A DNA stretch of 32,000 nucleotides, taken from the NCBI RefSeq assembly GCF_000148385.1, contig NC_014537.1, forward strand, positions 1,290,001 to 1,322,000. Direction: 5' to 3'. The stretch is from Vulcanisaeta distributa DSM 14429. GTDB taxonomy: Archaea > Thermoproteota > Thermoprotei > Thermoproteales > Thermocladiaceae. Positions 1,785 to 22,290 of the stretch are shown here, piece by piece. Each line of letters begins with the position of its first letter. Position 1 is the first letter of the stretch. The position numbers were made by a program, and so were the translations under genes. Below the pieces are notes generated by a model that worked only from the letters and a program-made list of their open reading frames with translations, made no database searches and was not told where the DNA came from.

Positions 1785-2702
1785 TCAAGGTTCCTCGCCA
1801 CGTTTAATTGGGGCACCACGACTTATCCAATCAAGCCAGGAACCAAGGTAAACCCTAACCTTACTAAAGCCAAGTAACTCTGTTAAGGCAAACCACACAA
1901 GGGCCGACCTACCGCCAGTCCTACAATAAAGTATTATGTTGTCATTTTGTGAAAGTCCGTACCTATCAACCACCTTCACAATCTCATCACGATCCCTAAA
2001 CCTATTGGTTCTGGGTTCGAGAAATAGATTCCAGGGCATGTTAATGGCGCCTGGTATATGGCCCCAAATATCCACGTCACTACCCATGTACTCACAGGGA
2101 GACCTAACATCAATAAGTAGCGTATCACCGCCAATATTTCCATTGGTAACCAGCTCGTATACTTGATCGAAATTGACGAAATAATCCTTAAGATTAACAA
2201 CTACATTCAACCAATCCCTTTGATTGAAATTACTGCTATACACGTGTCCATTACATGTGCATAGAGGGCCCTTATGTATTAGCCAATTTACCTTACCACC
2301 GTTAAGCAATGATATGTGTTTAAAACCAAGAGCCTTTAATACCATGTAGGCTAATGCCGCGTGCCTATTATCAATCTCATCAAGAAGCACGATATGCCTA
2401 TCCCGGGTTATGCCCTTAACGGCTAAATCCATGATTAATGCTTCATAATCCCTTATAATGCCCACATCACGTAATAAATCACCATAAAGTCTTAACAATG
2501 TTGAACCAGGTATATGCCAACTGAGGTATCCAGCCCCTGGATTCTCGTCTATCTCAACTACGATATAGGGACTAGAAATAAATGAGGCGAAGCCACGATT
2601 AAGATAGCTCAGTATATCCTCCACCTCGGTTAATGACTCCACAAATATGCGATGGTAATACGATTTATAAGTATGGATTATTAGTGCATTTTTTACATAC
2701 AT
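1785..2702 (-). CDS. Tandem-domain rhodanese (thiosulfate/3-mercaptopyruvate sulfurtransferase family)
   Basis: 305-aa ORF. The C-terminal domain carries the catalytic loop YCRTGGRS followed by GSWLDW, and HIPG motifs occur in both domains. It is a paralogue of the 10275..11186 ORF, with the same C-terminal ...IK(R/K)G(E/Q)EP. Confidence 0.8.
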   Translation of the reverse strand: MYVKNALIIHTYKSYYHRIFVESLTEVEDILSYLNRGFASFISSPYIVVEIDENPGAGYLSWHIPGSTLLRLYGDLLRDVGIIRDYEALIMDLAVKGITRDRHIVLLDEIDNRHAALAYMVLKALGFKHISLLNGGKVNWLIHKGPLCTCNGHVYSSNFNQRDWLNVVVNLKDYFVNFDQVYELVTNGNIGGDTLLIDVRSPCEYMGSDVDIWGHIPGAINMPWNLFLEPRTNRFRDRDEIVKVVDRYGLSQNDNIILYCRTGGRSALVWFALTELLGFSKVRVYLGSWLDWISRGAPIKRGEEP

Positions 2703-2800: not shown

Positions 2801-3259
2801 ATGGCTGAGGAAAGAAAATTGGGCATTGTATTCGCATCGGGTGCCGCAAATAGGATTTGCTGCCTAGTGGTTTATGGCGCAGCTGCACTGGCGGCTGGTT
2901 ATAAGGTAGTCGTTCACCTGGTTAATGAGGGATTGGTCGCCTTTAGGAAGGATGTATTACCAAGACTAAACACCCAGGACCTGGGCGTGACGATAGGACC
3001 GGCTATGTATGTCCCCTACATAGAGACGTACTTAAGGAATTTAAAGAATGCCGTGGAGAAGGGCGAGTTTAAGGACTGGTACTCATACCTGAAGGAGCTT
3101 AAGTCGGTCTATGGCGATAAATTCAAAATATACGCATGCCCACTTGCCGCACAACTCTATAACATAAAGAAGGAGGACTTAGTGGACATAGTGGACGAGA
3201 TTAAGGGTGCGGAGTCATTCCTTGAGGAGGTCTATGGAGGACCGATACTGTATTTATGA
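2801..3259 (+). CDS. DsrE/DsrF-like sulfur-relay family protein (DsrE2/DsrE3-type, 'predicted peroxiredoxin' group)
   Basis: 152-aa ORF. N-terminus KLGIVFASGAANRICCLVVYGAAALAAGYKVVVHL is a Rossmann-like DsrE fold signature. There is a conserved Cys in IYACPLAAQLY. The gene is divergent from a rhodanese. Confidence 0.6.
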   Translation: MAEERKLGIVFASGAANRICCLVVYGAAALAAGYKVVVHLVNEGLVAFRKDVLPRLNTQDLGVTIGPAMYVPYIETYLRNLKNAVEKGEFKDWYSYLKELKSVYGDKFKIYACPLAAQLYNIKKEDLVDIVDEIKGAESFLEEVYGGPILYL

Positions 3260-3308: not shown

Positions 3309-4649
3309 TCACTTGCGTTGTACCTTGAACCCAGGCTTAGTTAATTCCTTAAGGTTAAGGATGTTATCAATCTCATCATCACTAAACCCCAACTCCTTAA
3401 GTACGTCCCTAATGCTGCGGCCCATCATTAATTCCCTGCTCAATTCAGCAGCCTTCTCATAACCTATCATGGGCGTGAGCATGGTTATCAAGGCCAGTGA
3501 TTTCTCAGCATATCTACGCATGACATCCACGTTGGGGGTTAACCCATCAATCACGAGTTTCGTGAACTTCCTAATTCCCTCACTCAATATACTCATCTCC
3601 ATGATTATGTCATAACCAATGACTGGTATACCCATGCTTAACTCAAACTCCCCAAGCATTGAGGCATGCTCAATCGACTTATCGAGGCCCAATACCTGCG
3701 CTATAGCCTGTAAAAGGGACTCCACGGTAACTGGGTTAGTCTTACCAGGCATTATGCTAGACCCAGCAACCTCGCCTTGTGTAGGTATGTCTATCTCATT
3801 AAGCCCTGTGAACGGCCCTGAAAACATTAGCCTAATATCCTGGCCAAGCCTATGAAGGTCCAGTGATAGTGCCTTAATTGCACTTGATAACATTACTAAA
3901 TCGGTGAGTAATTTCATAGACATGAACGGGTTAACCCTTACGAAATCCAGCCCAGTTACCTCATTAATTACCTTAACAACCTCATCACCAAATCTTGGAT
4001 GCGTATTAAAGCCAGTACCGACCGCGGTACCACCAATTGGTAATCCCTTAACGAAGTTGATGGTATAATCGAGTAATTGAACGTCACGCAAAAACGCATC
4101 TAGGTAACCGGATAATTCCTGACCAAGGGTTACCGGCAACGCATCCCTTAAGTGTGTTCTACCGGGCTTAACAATATCACTAAACTCATTGACCTTCCTA
4201 CGTAGTGAGACTATTAAATCATTAATTGCAGGCCTTAATGACTCCACGTACTCCATAACTGCGGCAACCCTAATGGCCGTGGGCACAACATCATTTGATG
4301 ATTGGCCAAGGTTCACGTGATCGTTGGGATGCACCTTAACACCGAGATCCAAATATGCGTGCTTAGCGATGACCTCATTAATATTCATGTTTAAGCCGGT
4401 GCCAGAACCGGTTTGATACACGTCAAGTATTACCTCATCATCATACTTACCACTCATTAATTCTTGGGAGACCCTCATTATTGCACTACCAACATCACTA
4501 CTTAATAGCCCAAGCTCCACATTAACCTTGGCTGCGGCATACTTAATGAGCCCCATCGCCCATATTATCCTACGCGGAAACCTAGTACCCGTGTCCAGGT
4601 AGAGATCCCTCGCCTTCTCTACAAACTCCACAATAATAAATTCAGGCAT
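3309..4649 (-). CDS. fumC: Class II fumarate hydratase (fumarase/aspartase superfamily)
   Basis: 446-aa ORF. It has the superfamily signature GSSIMPGKTNPV, and YQTGSGTGLNMNINEVIA (QTGSGT favours fumarase over aspartase). Confidence 0.75.
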   Translation of the reverse strand: MPEFIIVEFVEKARDLYLDTGTRFPRRIIWAMGLIKYAAAKVNVELGLLSSDVGSAIMRVSQELMSGKYDDEVILDVYQTGSGTGLNMNINEVIAKHAYLDLGVKVHPNDHVNLGQSSNDVVPTAIRVAAVMEYVESLRPAINDLIVSLRRKVNEFSDIVKPGRTHLRDALPVTLGQELSGYLDAFLRDVQLLDYTINFVKGLPIGGTAVGTGFNTHPRFGDEVVKVINEVTGLDFVRVNPFMSMKLLTDLVMLSSAIKALSLDLHRLGQDIRLMFSGPFTGLNEIDIPTQGEVAGSSIMPGKTNPVTVESLLQAIAQVLGLDKSIEHASMLGEFELSMGIPVIGYDIIMEMSILSEGIRKFTKLVIDGLTPNVDVMRRYAEKSLALITMLTPMIGYEKAAELSRELMMGRSIRDVLKELGFSDDEIDNILNLKELTKPGFKVQRK

Positions 4650-4872
4650 ATATTTAATAATGCGATTGCTGAGTTCGCGAATCTAAACTGTAAAGGTACG
4701 TCTTAAGAATGCATGAACTATGACAAAAATCTTCGAAGTATACCTATTAAGACACATCATATGTTTAACGGTATTATAAAATACTATAAATATGTATAGA
4801 AGCTAATATTTTTGTTCATAATTTAAGATAAATAAATACAGTTTTATTAATATCAGGAACGCATGCATTAAC

Positions 4873-5787
4873 GTGAGGAAGACAGCCATTCACATAATTA
4901 GGGGTAACTGGACAAGGGATGGAGCAGGCGTTAAGCTATATAGGGTATTTGGCGATCCACGTATTGCCGAGATAACAGACCCATTTCTACTCCTTGATCA
5001 TTTCGGCTCAAGAGATCCTAATGACTATATGATGGGGTTTCCATGGCATCCGCACAGGGGTATTGAAACAGTGACCTATTTATTGAATGGGGAGGTTCAC
5101 CATAGGGATAGTACAGGGAATGAGGGGATTATTGGTCCTGGGGATGCCCAGTGGATGACCGCCGGCAGTGGTATCTTCCATGAAGAGATGCCAAAGCCCA
5201 TTAGAAAAGTTACATTGGATGGCAATGAGATTTACGACACGGAGGTTAACGGCTTTCAACTTTGGGTAAACCTACCCAGCAAGTATAAGATGAGGGTTCC
5301 TAAGTACAGGAACGTCCTCAGGAAGCACATACCAGTGGTTGAGTTGGAGAGTGGTGGTAGGGCCGTGATTATTGCGGGAAGAATTAGGGTGAGTGGTTAT
5401 GGGATTGTTGAGGGACCAGTTAATGACTTAACAACACCAATACATTACCTAGATGTTCAATTGCCCGAGGAGTCAACCTTCAATTACGAAGTTAATGATG
5501 GATATACCGCATTGATTTATATGGTTGATGGTGAAGCATCCCTTGATCAGTGGCACGTTGCTAAACGCGGGGAGCTCGTTGTCCTAACAAGAGATGGGGA
5601 TGAGGTTATAGTGAAAACAGGCGAGAAGCCCGCCAGATTCTTATTAATGGCTGGTAGGCCTATCGGTGAGCCAATTGCGTGGTATGGACCCATAGTAATG
5701 AATACCTGGGATGAAATAAGAAGGGCCTTTGATGAGCTGCGAAGGGGTACGTTCATTAAGGCAAGGCCTGAAGTCCAGGATTATTAA
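4873..5787 (+). CDS. Pirin-family bicupin protein
   Basis: 304-aa ORF with a GTG start. The metal-binding region FPWHPHRGIETVTYLLNGEVHHRDSTGN is characteristic of pirins. Confidence 0.85.
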   Translation: MRKTAIHIIRGNWTRDGAGVKLYRVFGDPRIAEITDPFLLLDHFGSRDPNDYMMGFPWHPHRGIETVTYLLNGEVHHRDSTGNEGIIGPGDAQWMTAGSGIFHEEMPKPIRKVTLDGNEIYDTEVNGFQLWVNLPSKYKMRVPKYRNVLRKHIPVVELESGGRAVIIAGRIRVSGYGIVEGPVNDLTTPIHYLDVQLPEESTFNYEVNDGYTALIYMVDGEASLDQWHVAKRGELVVLTRDGDEVIVKTGEKPARFLLMAGRPIGEPIAWYGPIVMNTWDEIRRAFDELRRGTFIKARPEVQDY

Positions 5788-5842
5788 TGGGGTTAAGGTA
5801 ATGAAAATGAAAAAGAATAAATTCAATACTTAAGCGATATAT

Positions 5843-6226
5843 ATGATGAGTACTAATAATTTAAATGATGCCATGCTTACGACGTTAGAATCCCTATTTA
5901 GTGCATTAGCTGATAGGACTAGGCTTGAGATTGTGCTATTTATAATGAGAAACGGAAAGGCATCAGTACAGGAAATAGCCCGTGGCATTAATAAGTCACA
6001 ATCATTAGTGTCTCATCACTTAGCCTGCCTTAGGAACTGCGGTATAGTTAAGACAGAGAGGAAGGGTAAGTACGTTTACTACTCATTACTAGATAATGAG
6101 GTTGTAAGTATAATTAAGTTGGCCGTGGAACACGCAATGAAGTTTAGCCAATCAATATTAGCGTGTGAAATAATTAATGAGGAGAAAAATAGAAATGAGA
6201 TAGAAACTCGGGTAAACCTTACTTAG
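5843..6226 (+). CDS. ArsR/SmtB-family metalloregulator (candidate archaeal-type MerR)
   Basis: 127-aa ORF. LADRTRLEIVLFIMRNGKASVQEIARGINKSQSLVSHHLACLRNCGIVKTERKGKYVYYSL is the canonical ArsR wHTH. The gene lies 1.2 kb upstream of merH-merA. Confidence 0.8.
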   Translation: MMSTNNLNDAMLTTLESLFSALADRTRLEIVLFIMRNGKASVQEIARGINKSQSLVSHHLACLRNCGIVKTERKGKYVYYSLLDNEVVSIIKLAVEHAMKFSQSILACEIINEEKNRNEIETRVNLT

Positions 6227-6229
6227 TAA

Positions 6230-6790
6230 TTAACCAACTCCCACTACATCTAATAGACCATTTATGGTGTTTGATAAGTCAACATTACTATAAATTATCC
6301 TTCCATTGGGAGATATTAAATAGTAGATGTCTGGATAACCATGCGGATCATATGCTTCAGTCATTTCAAGGCTTGCATAACCTATTATGAACAGCCTTGA
6401 ATTATTACCCGCAAAGTAGTTAACGAATATACCTACTGGCGTTCCTGAGTAGCCTAAATCATTGTATGGTTCGAGTATTATGACCGTGACATTCCTCGCG
6501 GCTAATAACTGCGCATAATGACTTAGCGTGAGAACACCGTATGCGCAACTACTACACCAAGTGGCTGCGAAGTAGAGTAATACGTAGTGTCCGTGGTGAA
6601 GGAAATCCGATAGATTCACCGTGGTTCCATTATCCAGCGTAAACTGCGCATTTGGTGCGTAATCACCTACTTTTATTCCTACCTTGACCACTGATGAATT
6701 ATATAGTACAATTATAAGACTTAATGTAACCACGGTAAGTATTACCATGATTATTACGTATAAGAGAATGCGGGTATTCACGGTCATCAC
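6230..6790 (-). CDS. Signal-anchored thioredoxin-fold thiol:disulfide oxidoreductase (TlpA/ResA-like)
   Basis: 186-aa ORF. It has an N-terminal hydrophobic anchor, then GDYAPNAQFTL..G..V.LSDF..GHYVLLYFAATWCSSC (redoxin pattern with WCxxC). Its start (GTG 6790 or ATG 6787) overlaps the stop of the upstream membrane-protein gene. Confidence 0.7.
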   Translation of the reverse strand: MMTVNTRILLYVIIMVILTVVTLSLIIVLYNSSVVKVGIKVGDYAPNAQFTLDNGTTVNLSDFLHHGHYVLLYFAATWCSSCAYGVLTLSHYAQLLAARNVTVIILEPYNDLGYSGTPVGIFVNYFAGNNSRLFIIGYASLEMTEAYDPHGYPDIYYLISPNGRIIYSNVDLSNTINGLLDVVGVG

Positions 6791-7296
6791 CTAATGATTG
6801 AACAAAAACATAGTCTCTTAGATGATAGATACAGGGAATAATATGCAAGTATCAGCGCCAAAAACATTATAATAGGATCCCACTCGGCTATGAAACCCAT
6901 TATCTTACCATTAATGGTTATGGCTATTAATGAACCGCCTAACGTGGAAATCAACATGGGTATGACTGTACTACAACATAGGCTTGGCATAATACCTATT
7001 ATTGAAGCGGCTGCACTAAGTCTAATGCCCACCGGGCGCATTCTATGACTATAACTATATATGCTGATTGCAATTGATATACTTAGGGCCCAGGATAGAG
7101 CTAGGGAATAAACTATGGAATAAATGACATAGTAATTACCAAAAAATAAGAAGCCAGTATCTGATTGAATGAGAATAAATGAGTATGTTAATGATAATAC
7201 TATGAAAAATACCGTGGTTAATAAAGCATACTTAACGTCATGAAAGATCATAGCCCAAACCTTGAATATATAATTTGAGCCTAAGCGTTTGGCCAT
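6787..7296 (-). CDS. Polytopic membrane protein with an intramembrane vicinal Cys pair (LCCSTVIP) and a C-terminal CFC; function unknown
   Basis: 169-aa ORF with roughly 5 hydrophobic segments. The motif MPSLCCSTVIPMLISTLGG lies inside a hydrophobic helix. The gene is translationally coupled to the thioredoxin-like gene and divergent from merH-merA. Confidence 0.6.
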   Translation of the reverse strand: MAKRLGSNYIFKVWAMIFHDVKYALLTTVFFIVLSLTYSFILIQSDTGFLFFGNYYVIYSIVYSLALSWALSISIAISIYSYSHRMRPVGIRLSAAASIIGIMPSLCCSTVIPMLISTLGGSLIAITINGKIMGFIAEWDPIIMFLALILAYYSLYLSSKRLCFCSIIR

Positions 7297-7336
7297 CGTG
7301 CTTTCCTATATTTCGGTGTTTTTAAATTATTCTCAC

Positions 7337-7356
7337 ATATGAATATTTGTTCATAT
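7337..7356. promoter_or_regulatory. Inverted repeat ATATGAA-N6-TTCATAT (TGAA-N6-TTCA core), candidate ArsR-family operator in a bidirectional promoter
   Basis: The 7-bp arms are perfect (7337-7343 and 7350-7356). The repeat sits about 10 bp from an A/T box on each side: TTTTTAAATT at 7317-7326 for the minus-strand gene and TTTATAAATA at 7366-7375 for merH. Confidence 0.5.
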
Positions 7357-7401
7357 TTAGAAAGATTTATAAATATTCGTTCTTAGCGTTGTGGGAGGAA
7401 T

Positions 7402-7575
7402 ATGGGTAAGCTTAGATCAAGTATAAGTGGTGGGGATAAATTGGTCTGTGAGAATTGTGGTGTTGAATTAACACCTGAGAGGATATATGTGCATGAAATT
7501 AACGGAATTAAGCATTACTTTTGCTGTGAGCATTGTGCCCATGAGTTTGAACGTAAATTGAGGACTGTCCATTAA
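7402..7575 (+). CDS. merH: TRASH-domain metallochaperone-like small protein (MerH-like)
   Basis: 57-aa ORF, below the ORF-track cut-off: MGKLRSSISGGDKLVCENCGVELTPERIYVHEINGIKHYFCCEHCAHEFERKLRTVH. It matches the TRASH pattern C-x2-C-x19-22-C-x3-C (C16, C19, C41, C45). GGAGG lies 4 nt upstream of the ATG, and the ORF ends 33 nt before merA. Confidence 0.7.
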   Translation: MGKLRSSISGGDKLVCENCGVELTPERIYVHEINGIKHYFCCEHCAHEFERKLRTVH

Positions 7576-7608
7576 TGGTGCTACTTAATAAGTAATAATG
7601 GTGGATAG

Positions 7609-8970
7609 ATGATGAAGGAACTCGTCATAATAGGTTATGGCGCCGCCGGGTTTGCAGCATTAATTAGGGCAAATGAACTTGGAATAAAACCGGTATTGAT
7701 AGGTTATGGACCATTGGGAGGTACCTGCGTTAACGTTGGCTGTGTACCCTCTAAGACCGTTTTACGCATTGGGGAGTTGTATAATTATGTAAGTAAGGTG
7801 CTTGGTCATGAACATTACCCTGAGTTTACGGAGGTATTCGCCAGGGAAAGGGAAGTGGTTAACGAGCTTAGGCGGTTGAAGTATGAGGATGTACTGGCCA
7901 AGTACGACGTTGAGCTCATTGAGGGTAAAGCGTACTTCACATCATCAAGTACCGTTAAGGTTAATGGTAAAGTCATAGAGGCAAGAAGGTTCATAATAGC
8001 CACGGGTGCATCACCAAAGATACCGGAAATACCAGGACTTAAGGAGGTTGGGTATTGGACCAACGTTGAGGCGCTTAATCCTGATAGGAAGGTGGACTCG
8101 CTAGTCATTATTGGAGGCAGGGCCCAGGCCCTTGAATTCGCCCAGATGTATAGGAGGCTGGGGGTTGACGTCGCCATAGTACAGAGGAGCCCGACATTAA
8201 TACCTGACTGGGAACCTGAACTTGCCCTAGAGGCTCAGAGGATGCTTGAGGATGAGGGAGTATTGGTTATTACTAACGCCAAGGTGCTTAGGGTTAGTAG
8301 AGGTTTGGGTAAAGTCGTAATTACGGATAAGGGTGAGATTGAGGCTGACGAAATACTATTGGCCACCGGTAGGAGACCAAATATTGACCTAAATCTTGAA
8401 GCTGCAGGGGTTAAATTAAATGATAAAGGTGGCATACTCGTGGATGACGAGTTAAGGACAACAAACCCTCGCATTTACGCGGCGGGTGACGTAATTGGTG
8501 GTCCAATGCTTGAGGCATTGGCTGGTAAGCAGGGTGTTGTGGCTGTTGATAATGCCGTACTTAATGCGCACAGGAGGATTGATATGATGAGCGTACCTCA
8601 AGCAATATTTACGCAACCCAACCTGGCCAGGGTTGGATTAACGTTTATGGAGGCGAGTAAGGCTAGGATTAATGCTGATTATAGGGTTGTTTGGATGAGG
8701 GATGTGGCCAAGGCACATATATTGGGTGATACCAGGGGCTTAATTAAGATAATTATTGATAAAAATAATATGAGGATAATCGGCGTGCATGTGATGGCGG
8801 AGAACGCGGCTGAATTCATAGGTGAGGCTGCCCTTGCAATTAGGTTGAGGGCTACGGTTGATGATATTATTGATACAGTACACGTATTCCCAACCATGGC
8901 TGAGTCCCTTAAGCTGGCGGCTCAGGCCTTTCGTAGAGATATTAGTAAGTTAAGCTGTTGTGTGGATTAA
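7609..8970 (+). CDS. merA: Mercuric reductase, core form without an N-terminal HMA (NmerA) domain
   Basis: 453-aa ORF. It has an FAD GxGxxG motif (IIGYGAAG), the redox-active GGTCVNVGCVPSK, and a C-terminal vicinal Cys pair (SKLSCCVD), which is the MerA hallmark among pyridine-nucleotide disulfide oxidoreductases. Confidence 0.8.
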   Translation: MMKELVIIGYGAAGFAALIRANELGIKPVLIGYGPLGGTCVNVGCVPSKTVLRIGELYNYVSKVLGHEHYPEFTEVFAREREVVNELRRLKYEDVLAKYDVELIEGKAYFTSSSTVKVNGKVIEARRFIIATGASPKIPEIPGLKEVGYWTNVEALNPDRKVDSLVIIGGRAQALEFAQMYRRLGVDVAIVQRSPTLIPDWEPELALEAQRMLEDEGVLVITNAKVLRVSRGLGKVVITDKGEIEADEILLATGRRPNIDLNLEAAGVKLNDKGGILVDDELRTTNPRIYAAGDVIGGPMLEALAGKQGVVAVDNAVLNAHRRIDMMSVPQAIFTQPNLARVGLTFMEASKARINADYRVVWMRDVAKAHILGDTRGLIKIIIDKNNMRIIGVHVMAENAAEFIGEAALAIRLRATVDDIIDTVHVFPTMAESLKLAAQAFRRDISKLSCCVD

Positions 8971-9403: not shown

Positions 9404-9775
9404 ATGGGGAAGTACGCATTTGTAATACTTTGTAACCCGGATGACTTATCAGAGTCCATAAAGGCTGCCCATGCCCTTCATTACGCGGTACAGCTTAAGC
9501 GCAAGGGACATGACGTTTTAGTATACTTTGATGGGCTTGGTTCAAGAATACCGATAGCGAGCGCCAATAGCCCATATAAGGGCTTAAAACCTGCCTATGA
9601 CGAGGCATATAGAGAAGGCTTAATCTATGGCGTTTGCGGCTACTGCGCATCACCACCGCATCTAAACATAAGGGATTCACTACTCAAATTAAACATTAAG
9701 CTGATTGGTGATGAGGAGCATCATGAGGATATATCAATGTTTATTGATAAGGACTACACCGTACTCATAGTCTAG
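9404..9775 (+). CDS. DsrE-like (DsrE/DsrF/YchN fold) small protein
   Basis: 123-aa ORF. KYAFVILCNPDD....AHALHYAVQLKRKGHDVLVYFDGLG is a DsrE-type N-terminal beta-alpha-beta. There is a Cys pair in GVCGYCA. An A/T box lies about 25 nt upstream. Confidence 0.45.
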   Translation: MGKYAFVILCNPDDLSESIKAAHALHYAVQLKRKGHDVLVYFDGLGSRIPIASANSPYKGLKPAYDEAYREGLIYGVCGYCASPPHLNIRDSLLKLNIKLIGDEEHHEDISMFIDKDYTVLIV

Positions 9776-10274: not shown

Positions 10275-11186
10275 TTGACTATATTTGAATGCATTTGTAT
10301 GGGTTACGCACATCCAGAGGTCCTTGTGGATACGGAGTGGGTGGTTAATCATCTAAAGGATCCTAAGGTCAAAATAGTGGAGGTGGATTATGACCCAAGC
10401 ACCGCATACTTTGTATGGCATATACCAGGGGCATCACTACTTACATGGAAAGATCACATTAGGCATCCCGTACGTAGGGACTTCGTGGAGCCCGACCAAT
10501 TTGCCAGGTTCATGGAGGAACGAGGAATATCAAATGATACGACCGTCGTGCTTTACGGAGACTACAACAATTGGTTTGCGGCTTACGCCTTTTGGGTCTT
10601 TAAGGTTTATGGACATGAGGATGTGAGACTACTCAATGGCGGCAGGACCAAGTGGGCTAAGGAGAATAGGCCAACGTGCAGTGGGCACCAAGAGCCGCAT
10701 TATTATAGGGAGGCTGGCGCCAAGTATGTGGTTAAGAGGGTTGATTGGGGTAGCCATAGGGTATACGCATGGGAAATACTCAATAGGTTAAACAAGGGTG
10801 AGGTCGGTAAAAGCCTAATGCTAGTTGATGTTAGATCCCCCAAGGAATACACTGGCGAGATAACAGCACCGCCTGAGTACCCCAATGAACATGCGCAAGT
10901 TGGTGGCCATATACCTGGCGCGATCAATATCCCCTGGAGCCTAGCCGTTAATCCGGAGACAGGTGAGTTTAAATCGCCAGATGAGTTAAGGAGACTTTAT
11001 GAGCAGTACGGGATTACGTCAGACAAGGAAATCGTTACATACTGCAGAATTGCCGAAAGGGCATCCCACACCTGGTTTGTGCTAAAATACCTATTGGGCT
11101 ATCCCTCAGTTAGGGTGTATGATGGTTCATGGGCAGAATGGGGTAACATGGTCGGTGTTCCAATAAAGAAGGGACAAGAGCCCTAA
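10275..11186 (+). CDS. Tandem-domain thiosulfate sulfurtransferase (rhodanese, CysA/SseC-like)
   Basis: 303-aa ORF. The catalytic loop is YCRIAERASHTWFVLKYLLGY, with DGSWAEWG and HIPGA in both domains. The track start is TTG 10275; ATG 10299 (MGYAHPEVLV) is the more likely start. Confidence 0.85.
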   Translation: MTIFECICMGYAHPEVLVDTEWVVNHLKDPKVKIVEVDYDPSTAYFVWHIPGASLLTWKDHIRHPVRRDFVEPDQFARFMEERGISNDTTVVLYGDYNNWFAAYAFWVFKVYGHEDVRLLNGGRTKWAKENRPTCSGHQEPHYYREAGAKYVVKRVDWGSHRVYAWEILNRLNKGEVGKSLMLVDVRSPKEYTGEITAPPEYPNEHAQVGGHIPGAINIPWSLAVNPETGEFKSPDELRRLYEQYGITSDKEIVTYCRIAERASHTWFVLKYLLGYPSVRVYDGSWAEWGNMVGVPIKKGQEP

Positions 11187-11238: not shown

Positions 11239-11616
11239 TTACTCATTCTTGTTGAGGTTAACCATATTAAAGGCCAGGTAATGACATGGTACGCTCAATG
11301 AACAATCCCCACTACCATTACTAAGCGACCTAATCATCTCGGCGGCCCTCAAGCATTTACCCATACTCCTCAATAGCTCAATCAGTAACCCAAGGCCTAA
11401 CCTCACGTCAGGGTCATTTAAAGCCCTTATTAAACCAAGGACACCATCCACGGGCTTTACCTCATGATTAACATTGGTAGAAACACCATATAATGAACAT
11501 AGTATACATCGCGCTGCCTCCTGTATTGTAACCCTAAGCTCATCCTTATTATAACTACTCATAACATTAAGCACGTAATTTATTAGATCGTTGACCGTTA
11601 GACTTAATTCAACCAT
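11239..11616 (-). CDS. DUF1641-like small protein
   Basis: 125-aa ORF. VDGVLGLIRALNDPDVRLGLGLLIELLRSMGKCL resembles the conserved C-terminal DUF1641 block (..l.gllkal.dpev.rglg.l...lk.lg). Confidence 0.4.
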   Translation of the reverse strand: MVELSLTVNDLINYVLNVMSSYNKDELRVTIQEAARCILCSLYGVSTNVNHEVKPVDGVLGLIRALNDPDVRLGLGLLIELLRSMGKCLRAAEMIRSLSNGSGDCSLSVPCHYLAFNMVNLNKNE

Positions 11617-21502: not shown

Positions 21503-21997
21503 TCACGTAACGCCCAGTGACTTCTTAACCTCATTAATCAGTTCCTGAATAATTGGTATCCTAGCCCTAACGTCATCAACGTCGATCCTAACCTCGTGAA
21601 ATCCATTTACATGGAGGAAATAGGCCTCGGTCCAGGCCCTCCATACCTTATCGCCTAGTCTACGTGCAGCCTTATCCAGTAGGCTCACGGTCCACCTACC
21701 CTTGCTTAAGGCCTCCCTGGCCTCATCAAGGCCCCTGGCAATCGCCAAAGCCTTTACGGACCCCTCCACAGCCTTGTAAAGCCTCTCACTGGCCTGAACC
21801 ACATCACCCTTATCAACGAAACTCAAGCCCTCATTAAACATGGCCAAAGCCAACTTAGCATGAGCCTTAGCAGCGCTTGGTGGATCAATGTTTAGGTTTA
21901 CCGTTAGTACATCAATGATGTAATCAATATCTAATCCATTCCTTCTAAGGATGTTAATTATGGTCTTGGGTAATTCCATGCTAATTAAATTGCCCAA
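21503..21997 (-). CDS. PaREP1-family protein (HEPN-related, Thermoproteales-enriched family)
   Basis: 164-aa ORF. GDVVQASERLYKAVEGSVKALAIARGL...SKGRWTVSLLDKAARRLG..VWRAWTEAYFLHVNGFHEVRIDVDDVRARIP matches the PaREP1 core pattern (QASEK.Y.A.E..VKALA ... GRWT...L ... LHV.GFHE). Confidence 0.8.
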   Translation of the reverse strand: MGNLISMELPKTIINILRRNGLDIDYIIDVLTVNLNIDPPSAAKAHAKLALAMFNEGLSFVDKGDVVQASERLYKAVEGSVKALAIARGLDEAREALSKGRWTVSLLDKAARRLGDKVWRAWTEAYFLHVNGFHEVRIDVDDVRARIPIIQELINEVKKSLGVT

Positions 21998-22212: not shown

Positions 22213-22290
22213 TGGTGGGCCCGGTGGGATTTGAACCCACGTCCTACGGGTCTGGAGCCCGCCGCTCTGGCCTTGCTGAGCTACGGGCCC
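22213..22290 (-). tRNA. tRNA-Trp (anticodon CCA), intronless, with genomically encoded 3' CCA
   Basis: Minus strand: GGGCCCGTAGCTCAGCAAGGCCAGAGCGGCGGGCTCCAGACCCGTAGGACGTGGGTTCAAATCCCACCGGGCCCACCA. I folded it by hand into a full cloverleaf. The acceptor stem has 7 bp, all GC. The D stem is GCTC/GAGC. The anticodon stem is GCGGG/CCCGT and the anticodon loop is CTCCAGA. The T arm is GTGGG-TTCAAAT-CCCAC, the discriminator is A, and CCA follows. Confidence 0.95.

Follow-up and report, generated by a model that had tools for sequence, protein, structure and literature searches.

A membrane protein and thioredoxin-fold protein pair encoded beside merHA in Vulcanisaeta distributa, a candidate MerT-like relay for Hg(II) capture and import

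Apart from a single merP, Archaea are reported to lack the transporters of the mercury resistance (mer) system (Boyd and Barkay 2012; PMC3466566). Published surveys treat the early-branching mer loci as minimal, made up of a regulator, a chaperone and a reductase. A close described counterpart is merR-merH-merA(-merI) of Sulfolobus solfataricus, in which MerH is a TRASH-domain metal chaperone (PMC4187130). We analyzed a stretch of 32,000 nucleotides from Vulcanisaeta distributa DSM 14429 (contig NC_014537.1, positions 1,290,001 to 1,322,000; the whole stretch is called the window below), which carries a mer locus resembling that of S. solfataricus in its ArsR-type MerR, its TRASH-domain MerH and its core MerA without NmerA (PMC4187130). 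While the S. solfataricus locus as described (PMC4187130, PMC3466566) lists no membrane or exported component, the locus in the window adds a divergent pair of genes, one for a membrane protein and one for an anchored thioredoxin-fold protein, and this pair is the subject of the present analysis.

The reading we favour, with confidence a little better than even, is that the pair forms a MerT-like, thioredoxin-assisted and thiol-based relay which would capture and import Hg(II) and feed it to the cytoplasmic mer proteins. The membrane protein itself, with its four predicted helices, most likely shares a very remote ancestry with the MerT/MerF transporters. Its gene (6787-7296, minus strand) encodes 169 amino acids and belongs to an unnamed, distantly MerT-like family. 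The gene for the partner (6230-6790, minus strand) encodes 186 amino acids of a Pfam Redoxin protein predicted to be signal-anchored and extracytoplasmic. Both open reading frames (ORFs) were found as a preliminary description of this DNA had given them, as two coupled minus-strand genes, and the 105-bp region which it had them share with merH-merA was confirmed by measurement of the gap at 7297-7401. The overlap of stop and start within a GTGATGA junction was also found, although it lies at 6784-6790, one base away from the 6785-6791 first given; the stop codon TGA of the membrane protein gene (6789-6787) overlaps the GTG start of the partner gene (6790-6788). Direct reading of the sequence gave an alternative start for the thioredoxin-like gene, the ATG at 6787-6785. 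Both proteins have bacterial and archaeal homologues, with identities as low as 22-35%, in which the motifs and the close coupling of the two genes are retained; the genes are real and not chance ORFs. In RefSeq they are labelled "hypothetical protein" and "redoxin".

The membrane protein contains MPSLCCSTVIPML at residues 103-115 and ends in KRLCFCSIIR. An intramembrane vicinal pair, C107-C108, is followed by Ser/Thr and then by P113 in a hydrophobic helix, and C163-F-C165 is found at the C-terminus after K160-R161. The Cys pair followed by Pro and the C-terminal CFC had been pointed out in the preliminary description, which counted about five transmembrane segments; hydropathy, charge distribution and an AlphaFold model predict four, at approximately residues 21-48, 54-84, 93-126 and 141-159. 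The model, built from 48 sequences, had a predicted local distance difference test score (pLDDT) of 69 and a predicted template modelling score of 0.60, and in it the CC coincides with a break in the third helix. An earlier model built from five close sequences (pLDDT 47) was unusable. Basic residues are concentrated at the two ends of the protein and in the loop of residues 84-92, so that under the positive-inside rule both termini, and with them C163/C165, are predicted to be cytoplasmic. The CC would then be predicted to lie mid-membrane, with the thioredoxin domain of the partner facing outward.

No match to the membrane protein was obtained at E <= 1 in the Pfam or NCBIfam libraries, and a sequence-profile search of the PDB with the family returned nothing at E <= 10. 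The family is unnamed, and neither Pfam (2025) nor NCBIfam (June 2026) holds a model for it. Its members are of about 170-200 amino acids; those with source names are called hypothetical, and most are unnamed. The closest relative is that of Vulcanisaeta souniana, at 91% identity. A first exhaustive profile search recovered 41 representatives at E < 1e-3 and a second profile search recovered 82. An archaea-specific family, as the preliminary description had implied, was rejected, most of the members found being from acidophilic Proteobacteria and some being plasmid-borne. The family comprises at least 163 distinct sequences; motifs were counted over 163 of them, with the tail scored in 160. 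The CC is invariant (163/163), P113 is kept in all but one (162/163), and the residue directly after the CC is Ser or Thr in 159/163, giving a consensus of CC[ST]PxxP. A Cys is present in the tail after the last helix in 157 of the 160 members scored and a close Cys pair in 127. As read from sequence, the conserved features of the family (the predicted intramembrane CC, P113 and the tail Cys pair) match those known from Hg(II) transporters.

Comparison of the family with a MerT alignment by hhalign gave a probability of 90.2% (E 1.5e-6, score 42.5, 79 columns; the MerT alignment has an effective number of sequences of about 2). Residues 89-169 of the window protein were aligned with residues 6-84 of MerT, which placed the CC on MerT C24C25, the outer-loop Y-x-P on Y-x-P and the tail Cys residues on C76/C82. 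Column shuffles of MerT scored 11.1 +/- 2.0 and never more than 15.5, and no block shuffle exceeded 17.7; the accepted MerT-MerF pair scored 47.2. The probability against a MerF alignment was 40.8%. MerC (2.6%) and E. coli DsbD (0.1%) were tried in the same way and rejected as relatives. The reference MerT, MerP, MerC, MerF and MerE sequences all score above the NCBIfam cutoffs and are recognized by the Pfam and NCBIfam libraries. A CC within a helix does not in itself bring a high hhalign score, since a small haloarchaeal CC membrane protein (locus L054, 4035-4268) is not MerF/MerT-like and reached only 2-4%. In the family member P0028 an N-terminal MerF-like two-helix domain (residues 13-71) is fused to the family protein; this domain matched the MerF alignment at 93.7%, both CC pairs included. 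In locus L068 a MerF-like ORF (2-352) overlaps the family gene by 4 nt. A tblastn search of plasmids with the MerF-like protein of L013 returned nothing. From these comparisons, in which part of the signal is compositional, the C-terminal half of the membrane protein is probably distantly homologous to the MerT/MerF core, with two N-terminal helices added. The proposal of an Hg(II) relay analogous to the bacterial importers and not homologous to them is supported in part, as a relay, and on homology it probably needs to be amended, given the 90% hhalign probability to MerT.

The partner has one N-terminal hydrophobic anchor (residues ~8-30) and the motif T77-W-C-S-S-C82, and matches Pfam Redoxin (PF08534) with 42.3 bits (cutoff 26.6) and AhpC-TSA (PF00578) with 35 bits (cutoff 26). 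This agrees with its first description as an anchored thioredoxin fold with WCSSC (W78 to C82). It falls below the NCBIfam equivalog cutoffs for ResA (36 bits versus 170), TlpA (17.8 versus 230) and DsbE (17.2 versus 123). Pfam and NCBIfam scans gave no HMA match, and the MerP-type HMA fold with GMTCxxC was not encountered. The partner genes are orthologous across loci and adjoin the membrane protein gene in nearly every one. All but one of the 52 distinct partners have TWCxxC (51/52), and all are exported or anchored, whether through a signal peptide, a twin-arginine (Tat) signal or a signal anchor. The column aligned with the cis-Pro of ResA holds Pro in 19/52 orthologues, including that of the window (YPDIYY), Val in 22 and Ile, Leu or Ala in 9; loss of the cis-Pro is unusual for thiol-disulfide oxidoreductases. 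In all related loci the two genes of the pair overlap or lie no more than 17 nt apart, in either gene order: membrane protein gene then thioredoxin gene in archaea, and the reverse in bacteria.

The linkage of the pair to merA was examined in a locus scan using one genome per species, which returned 37 bacterial and archaeal loci. Six-frame ORFs of these loci were searched with hidden Markov models for MerA and for both proteins of the pair, and a true merA was taken to be one with a C-terminal CC, scoring at least 480 bits and within 6 kb of the pair. A full MerA ending in SCC was found in 28 of the 37 loci; since five lie on truncated contigs and could not be judged, this corresponds to 28 of 32 judgeable loci. 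The merA neighbours in L006, L007, L011 and L013 pass the NCBIfam MerA cutoffs. Four loci with full flanks are without merA (L049, L050, L034 and L043). L049, from a Rhodanobacter metagenome-assembled genome (MAG), has a merR-like regulator gene directly upstream of the thioredoxin gene and then the membrane protein gene (4737-6525) but no merA within 6 kb, and here the pair alone may be under Hg(II) control; L050 is a remnant next to a transposase-like ORF. About seven distinct gene orders were seen overall, under MerR-type or ArsR-type regulators. As the linkage has been kept despite rearrangement and under two unrelated types of regulator, it argues for a function shared with merA and not for accidental proximity. 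The suggestion that the pair merely neighbours the mer genes does not fit these data, in which it is a conserved module that many unrelated lineages carry inside their mer loci, with varying gene order and with either class of regulator. With respect to the classical genes, pair-carrying loci contained merT and merP once, merC three times, merF five times and merE twice, and approximately two-thirds of them were without merT, merP, merC, merF or merE.

Three archaeal lineages carry the pair beside merA: the Vulcanisaeta lineage, a second Thermoproteales-like clade (L057-L062) and L006. The second clade, at ~36% identity, has the same architecture as the window, with merA-merH, divergent membrane protein and thioredoxin genes and a convergent arsR; in L006 the order is membrane protein gene, thioredoxin gene, arsR and merA. 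In one V. souniana assembly (L002, GCA_001316025.1) merA, the thioredoxin-like gene and several neighbours are fragmented (6319-7687, 8504-8905). The same genes are intact in L001, and the fragments are likely assembly frameshifts rather than pseudogenes.

The pair also occurs in mer loci on three kinds of plasmid, namely Acidiphilium multivorum pACMV1, an Acidithiobacillus ferrooxidans plasmid and haloarchaeal plasmids. In the first two the order is merR and then, divergently, merA, the redoxin gene and the hypothetical protein gene. On pACMV1 of A. multivorum AIU301 the pair has the locus tags ACMV_RS17225 and ACMV_RS17220. Of the haloarchaeal plasmids, that of Halobacterium zhouii (NZ_CP089595; L054) was examined and has the pair in a merB-merA/arsR locus; two Halorussus plasmids give the same match. 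Directly upstream of the L054 family member (5947-6483) is a gene (4620-5945) for a 442-amino-acid fusion of C2H2-like zinc fingers, a Tat signal (SRRKLL), a TWCPSC thioredoxin domain and DUF3105, and on the sequence of this fusion DUF3105 would be linked to mercury or other metal handling. In bacterial pair-carrying mer loci a 451-amino-acid glutathione-reductase-like flavoprotein with the C-terminus YPSFASDIGSMV recurs just downstream (L011, 7314-8669; L013, 8528-9883; also L020, L024, L025, L028, L032 and L035). Its best NCBIfam match is glutathione reductase, at 313-317 bits and below the cutoff of 480, and in L011 its gene comes after a rubredoxin gene (6955-7125). This flavoprotein may supply reductant to the system.

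Within the window, the region between the pair and merH contains a central block which suggests common control. A TATA-like element, TTTTTAAATT (7319-7328), is located ~27 nt from the ATG of the pair and probably serves it, and an A/T box, TTTATAAA (7366-7373), upstream of merH would serve merH-merA. Between them lies the palindrome ATATGAA-n6-TTCATAT (7337-7356), a candidate operator. The palindrome and both A/T boxes are conserved in four loci of the Vulcanisaeta lineage, while the flanks diverge. It is a reasonable inference from the sequence that one operator governs both promoters through the ArsR-type MerR, in which case the pair and merH-merA would be co-regulated. The presumed regulator is encoded at 5843-6226 (plus strand), convergent with the pair, as an ArsR/SmtB-family metalloregulator of the archaeal MerR type (NCBIfam HTH_metalloreg, 87.4 bits versus a cutoff of 55), and an orthologue has the same position in L001, L003, L005 and L057-L062. 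On the other side, merH (7402-7575, plus strand) encodes a metal-binding protein of 57 amino acids with Pfam zf-FCS, YHS and TRASH matches. It is followed by merA (7609-8970, plus strand), for a mercuric reductase of the core type, which has no HMA domain at its N-terminus, ends in LSCCVD and passes the NCBIfam equivalog for MerA (TIGR02053) with 605.8 bits (cutoff 454.45).

A route for Hg(II) can be proposed. The outward-facing TWCSSC dithiol of the anchored partner would bind Hg(II), in a role like that of MerP, and would hand it by ligand exchange to C107-C108 of the membrane protein, at the break in its third helix. From there it would move to C163/C165 on the cytoplasmic side, and then to MerH, which is the likely cytoplasmic acceptor, or to the C-terminal CC of MerA, where it would be reduced to Hg(0).

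A number of observations weigh against an import relay. The reversed MerT alignment still scores 29.8 in hhalign, so part of that signal is compositional, reflecting CC and hydrophobic residues, and the curated models for MerT (PF02411, NF010314), MerF (NF033565), MerC and MerE all miss the membrane protein at E <= 1. The AlphaFold model is at its poorest around the CC (pLDDT 43-56), and Foldseek with this model found no fold match in the PDB, MerF included. As the pair coexists with MerF, MerC, MerE or MerT in approximately one-third of loci, it is not simply a substitute for the classical importers, and it could be doing something other than they do. The closest solved relative of the partner is B. 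subtilis ResA (3c71, E 3.5e-11), followed by TlpA and tryparedoxins, and ResA is a reductase which works with a membrane electron carrier. Because of this ResA likeness we have kept alive the model, unlikely in our judgement, of a reductant conduit recruited to mer operons, in which the membrane protein would pass cytoplasmic reducing equivalents to its ResA/TlpA-like partner as CcdA does to ResA, with a different fold. The partner would then keep extracytoplasmic thiols reduced or strip Hg(II) from surface proteins damaged in mercury stress, and Hg(II) itself would enter by diffusion or through MerF, MerC, MerE or MerT where these are present. Such a conduit would be in keeping with the weak NCBIfam ResA, TlpA and DsbE matches, the cis-Pro retained in the window, the coexistence with classical importers, the recurrent flavoprotein of the bacterial loci, and the occurrence of the pair without merA in some archaea, among them a halophilic archaeon MAG (L043) where it adjoins a DsbA-cupredoxin fusion with no merA within 6 kb. 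It is at odds with the membrane protein, which the preliminary description had thought might be of the DsbD/CcdA type and which shows no similarity to these by Pfam, by hhalign (0.1%) or by Foldseek against the PDB. The vicinal CC with a tail Cys pair is the pattern of MerT/MerF and not the one Cys per helix of CcdA/DsbD, the profile similarity is to MerT, most partners have lost the cis-Pro, and the MerF-like fusion in P0028 ties the family to transport.

Copies of the pair away from mer genes bear on a further explanation, that of a general module for soft-metal or thiol homeostasis (Cu(I), Ag, Cd or reactive sulfur) that is not dedicated to mercury and would be found near merA through clustering on mobile elements or islands. 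In L034 the pair is flanked by kup and ATP synthase genes, and merA is missing from the surrounding 6 kb. In the P0005 clade (L055, 3891-4945; L063-L067), which is paralogous and ~34% identical to the window membrane protein, it adjoins genes for ribosomal proteins, and neither merA nor merH nor arsR occurs within 6 kb; the metagenome Ga0080003 yielded both one of these loci, L063, and the mer-linked L060. In L056 the membrane protein and thioredoxin genes are followed by arsR, their only companion, without merA. Both the CC and the tail Cys pair are retained in the P0005 and L056 copies. The family is therefore not tied exclusively to merA, and the merA-unlinked copies may have a broader thiol or soft-metal role. 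The preliminary description had regarded a wide occurrence apart from merA as telling against its proposal; such copies do exist (P0005 clade, L056, L043 and L034), which bears this out in part; merA stands beside the pair in 28 of 32 judgeable loci. We regard the general module as improbable, even though these housekeeping and other contexts, the plasmid location or neighbouring transposases and other metal genes of several bacterial loci, and the rhodanese and DsrE-like genes flanking the window locus would all accommodate it. It does not explain why the pair is found inside the mer transcription unit, between merR, merA, merF and merE, often overlapping them and in many independent arrangements, nor why chromosomal Thermoproteales loci keep the arrangement divergent from merH-merA across ~36% protein identity. 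A pair which forms disulfides in exported proteins was also considered, given that a Cys-pair membrane protein with an exported CxxC thioredoxin fold resembles the DsbB-DsbA and VKOR-Trx layouts and that L043 has a DsbA-like neighbour. The membrane protein has no Pfam DsbB or VKOR match, no fold match and no evident quinone-binding features, the partner is ResA/TlpA-like and not DsbA-like, and the linkage to mer operons would be left without a reason; this oxidative explanation is very improbable.

Other features of the window were recorded alongside these. Sulfur-transfer genes flank the mer locus, encoding two rhodaneses, a DsrE-like protein and DUF1641; the flanking features are at 1785-2702 (minus), 2801-3259 (plus), 9404-9775 (plus), 10275-11186 (plus) and 11239-11616 (minus). 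Downstream of merA is an unannotated ORF of 123 amino acids with a GVCGYC motif. At the corresponding place in V. souniana (L001, 5520-5891) a gene of 123 amino acids is called, which is alike in position and length. Further along, a PaREP1-family gene (21503-21997, minus) adjoins a tRNA-Trp gene (22213-22290, minus), both ordinary for Thermoproteales.

The principle of a thiol relay is known; what is new here is the family, its architecture and the thioredoxin-fold partner. Full-text literature searches found no description of a thioredoxin or redoxin mer component, of DUF3105 in connection with mercury, or of such a part of an Acidiphilium mer operon. We propose tentatively, and with somewhat less than even confidence, that the pair is an unrecognized two-component Hg(II) importer, made up of a thioredoxin-fold chaperone and a diverged four-helix relative of MerT, that it is the missing transport arm of archaeal and of many acidophile and plasmid mer operons, and that it could be near the ancestor of MerT/MerF. 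If true, this would change the picture of archaea as lacking Hg(II) transporters, add a new gene family to mer annotation and provide the first case of a thioredoxin fold serving as a mercury-capture protein. It would also offer new parts for Hg biosensors and for bioremediation at low pH or high temperature. With the plasmid genes of the cultivable Acidiphilium multivorum, the delivery of Hg(II) to archaeal MerA becomes directly testable.

When the pair is set against known systems, the partner resembles ResA, TlpA and CcmG as a WCxxC member of the Redoxin family whose gene is coupled to that of a Cys-containing membrane protein, as in systems with CcdA/DsbD. It differs in that the cis-Pro is not conserved in its family and that the context is mer and not cytochrome c maturation. 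The core of CcdA/DsbD has six helices, two of which are pseudo-symmetric and each carry one essential Cys, whereas the membrane protein here is unrelated, has four predicted helices and carries a vicinal CC in one of them; no match to Pfam DsbD_TM (PF02683) or DsbD_2 was found. Like MerP (TIGR02052), the partner is exported, has a CxxC dithiol and is encoded beside the membrane component, and loci with the pair are almost devoid of merP. Unlike MerP, it has a thioredoxin/Redoxin fold in place of the ferredoxin-like HMA fold, is about twice the size and in the window is membrane-anchored. In comparison with MerT/MerF, the membrane protein has four predicted helices, two of them additional at the N-terminus, while MerT has three and MerF two; the spacing is CC-x4-P in place of CC-x2-P, and the companion is a thioredoxin fold and not MerP. 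What it shares with MerT/MerF is a vicinal CC and then a Pro inside the first helix of a two-helix core, a short outer loop with Y-x-P leading to the second helix, a predicted cytoplasmic Cys pair after a basic cluster, and a place in the mer operon.

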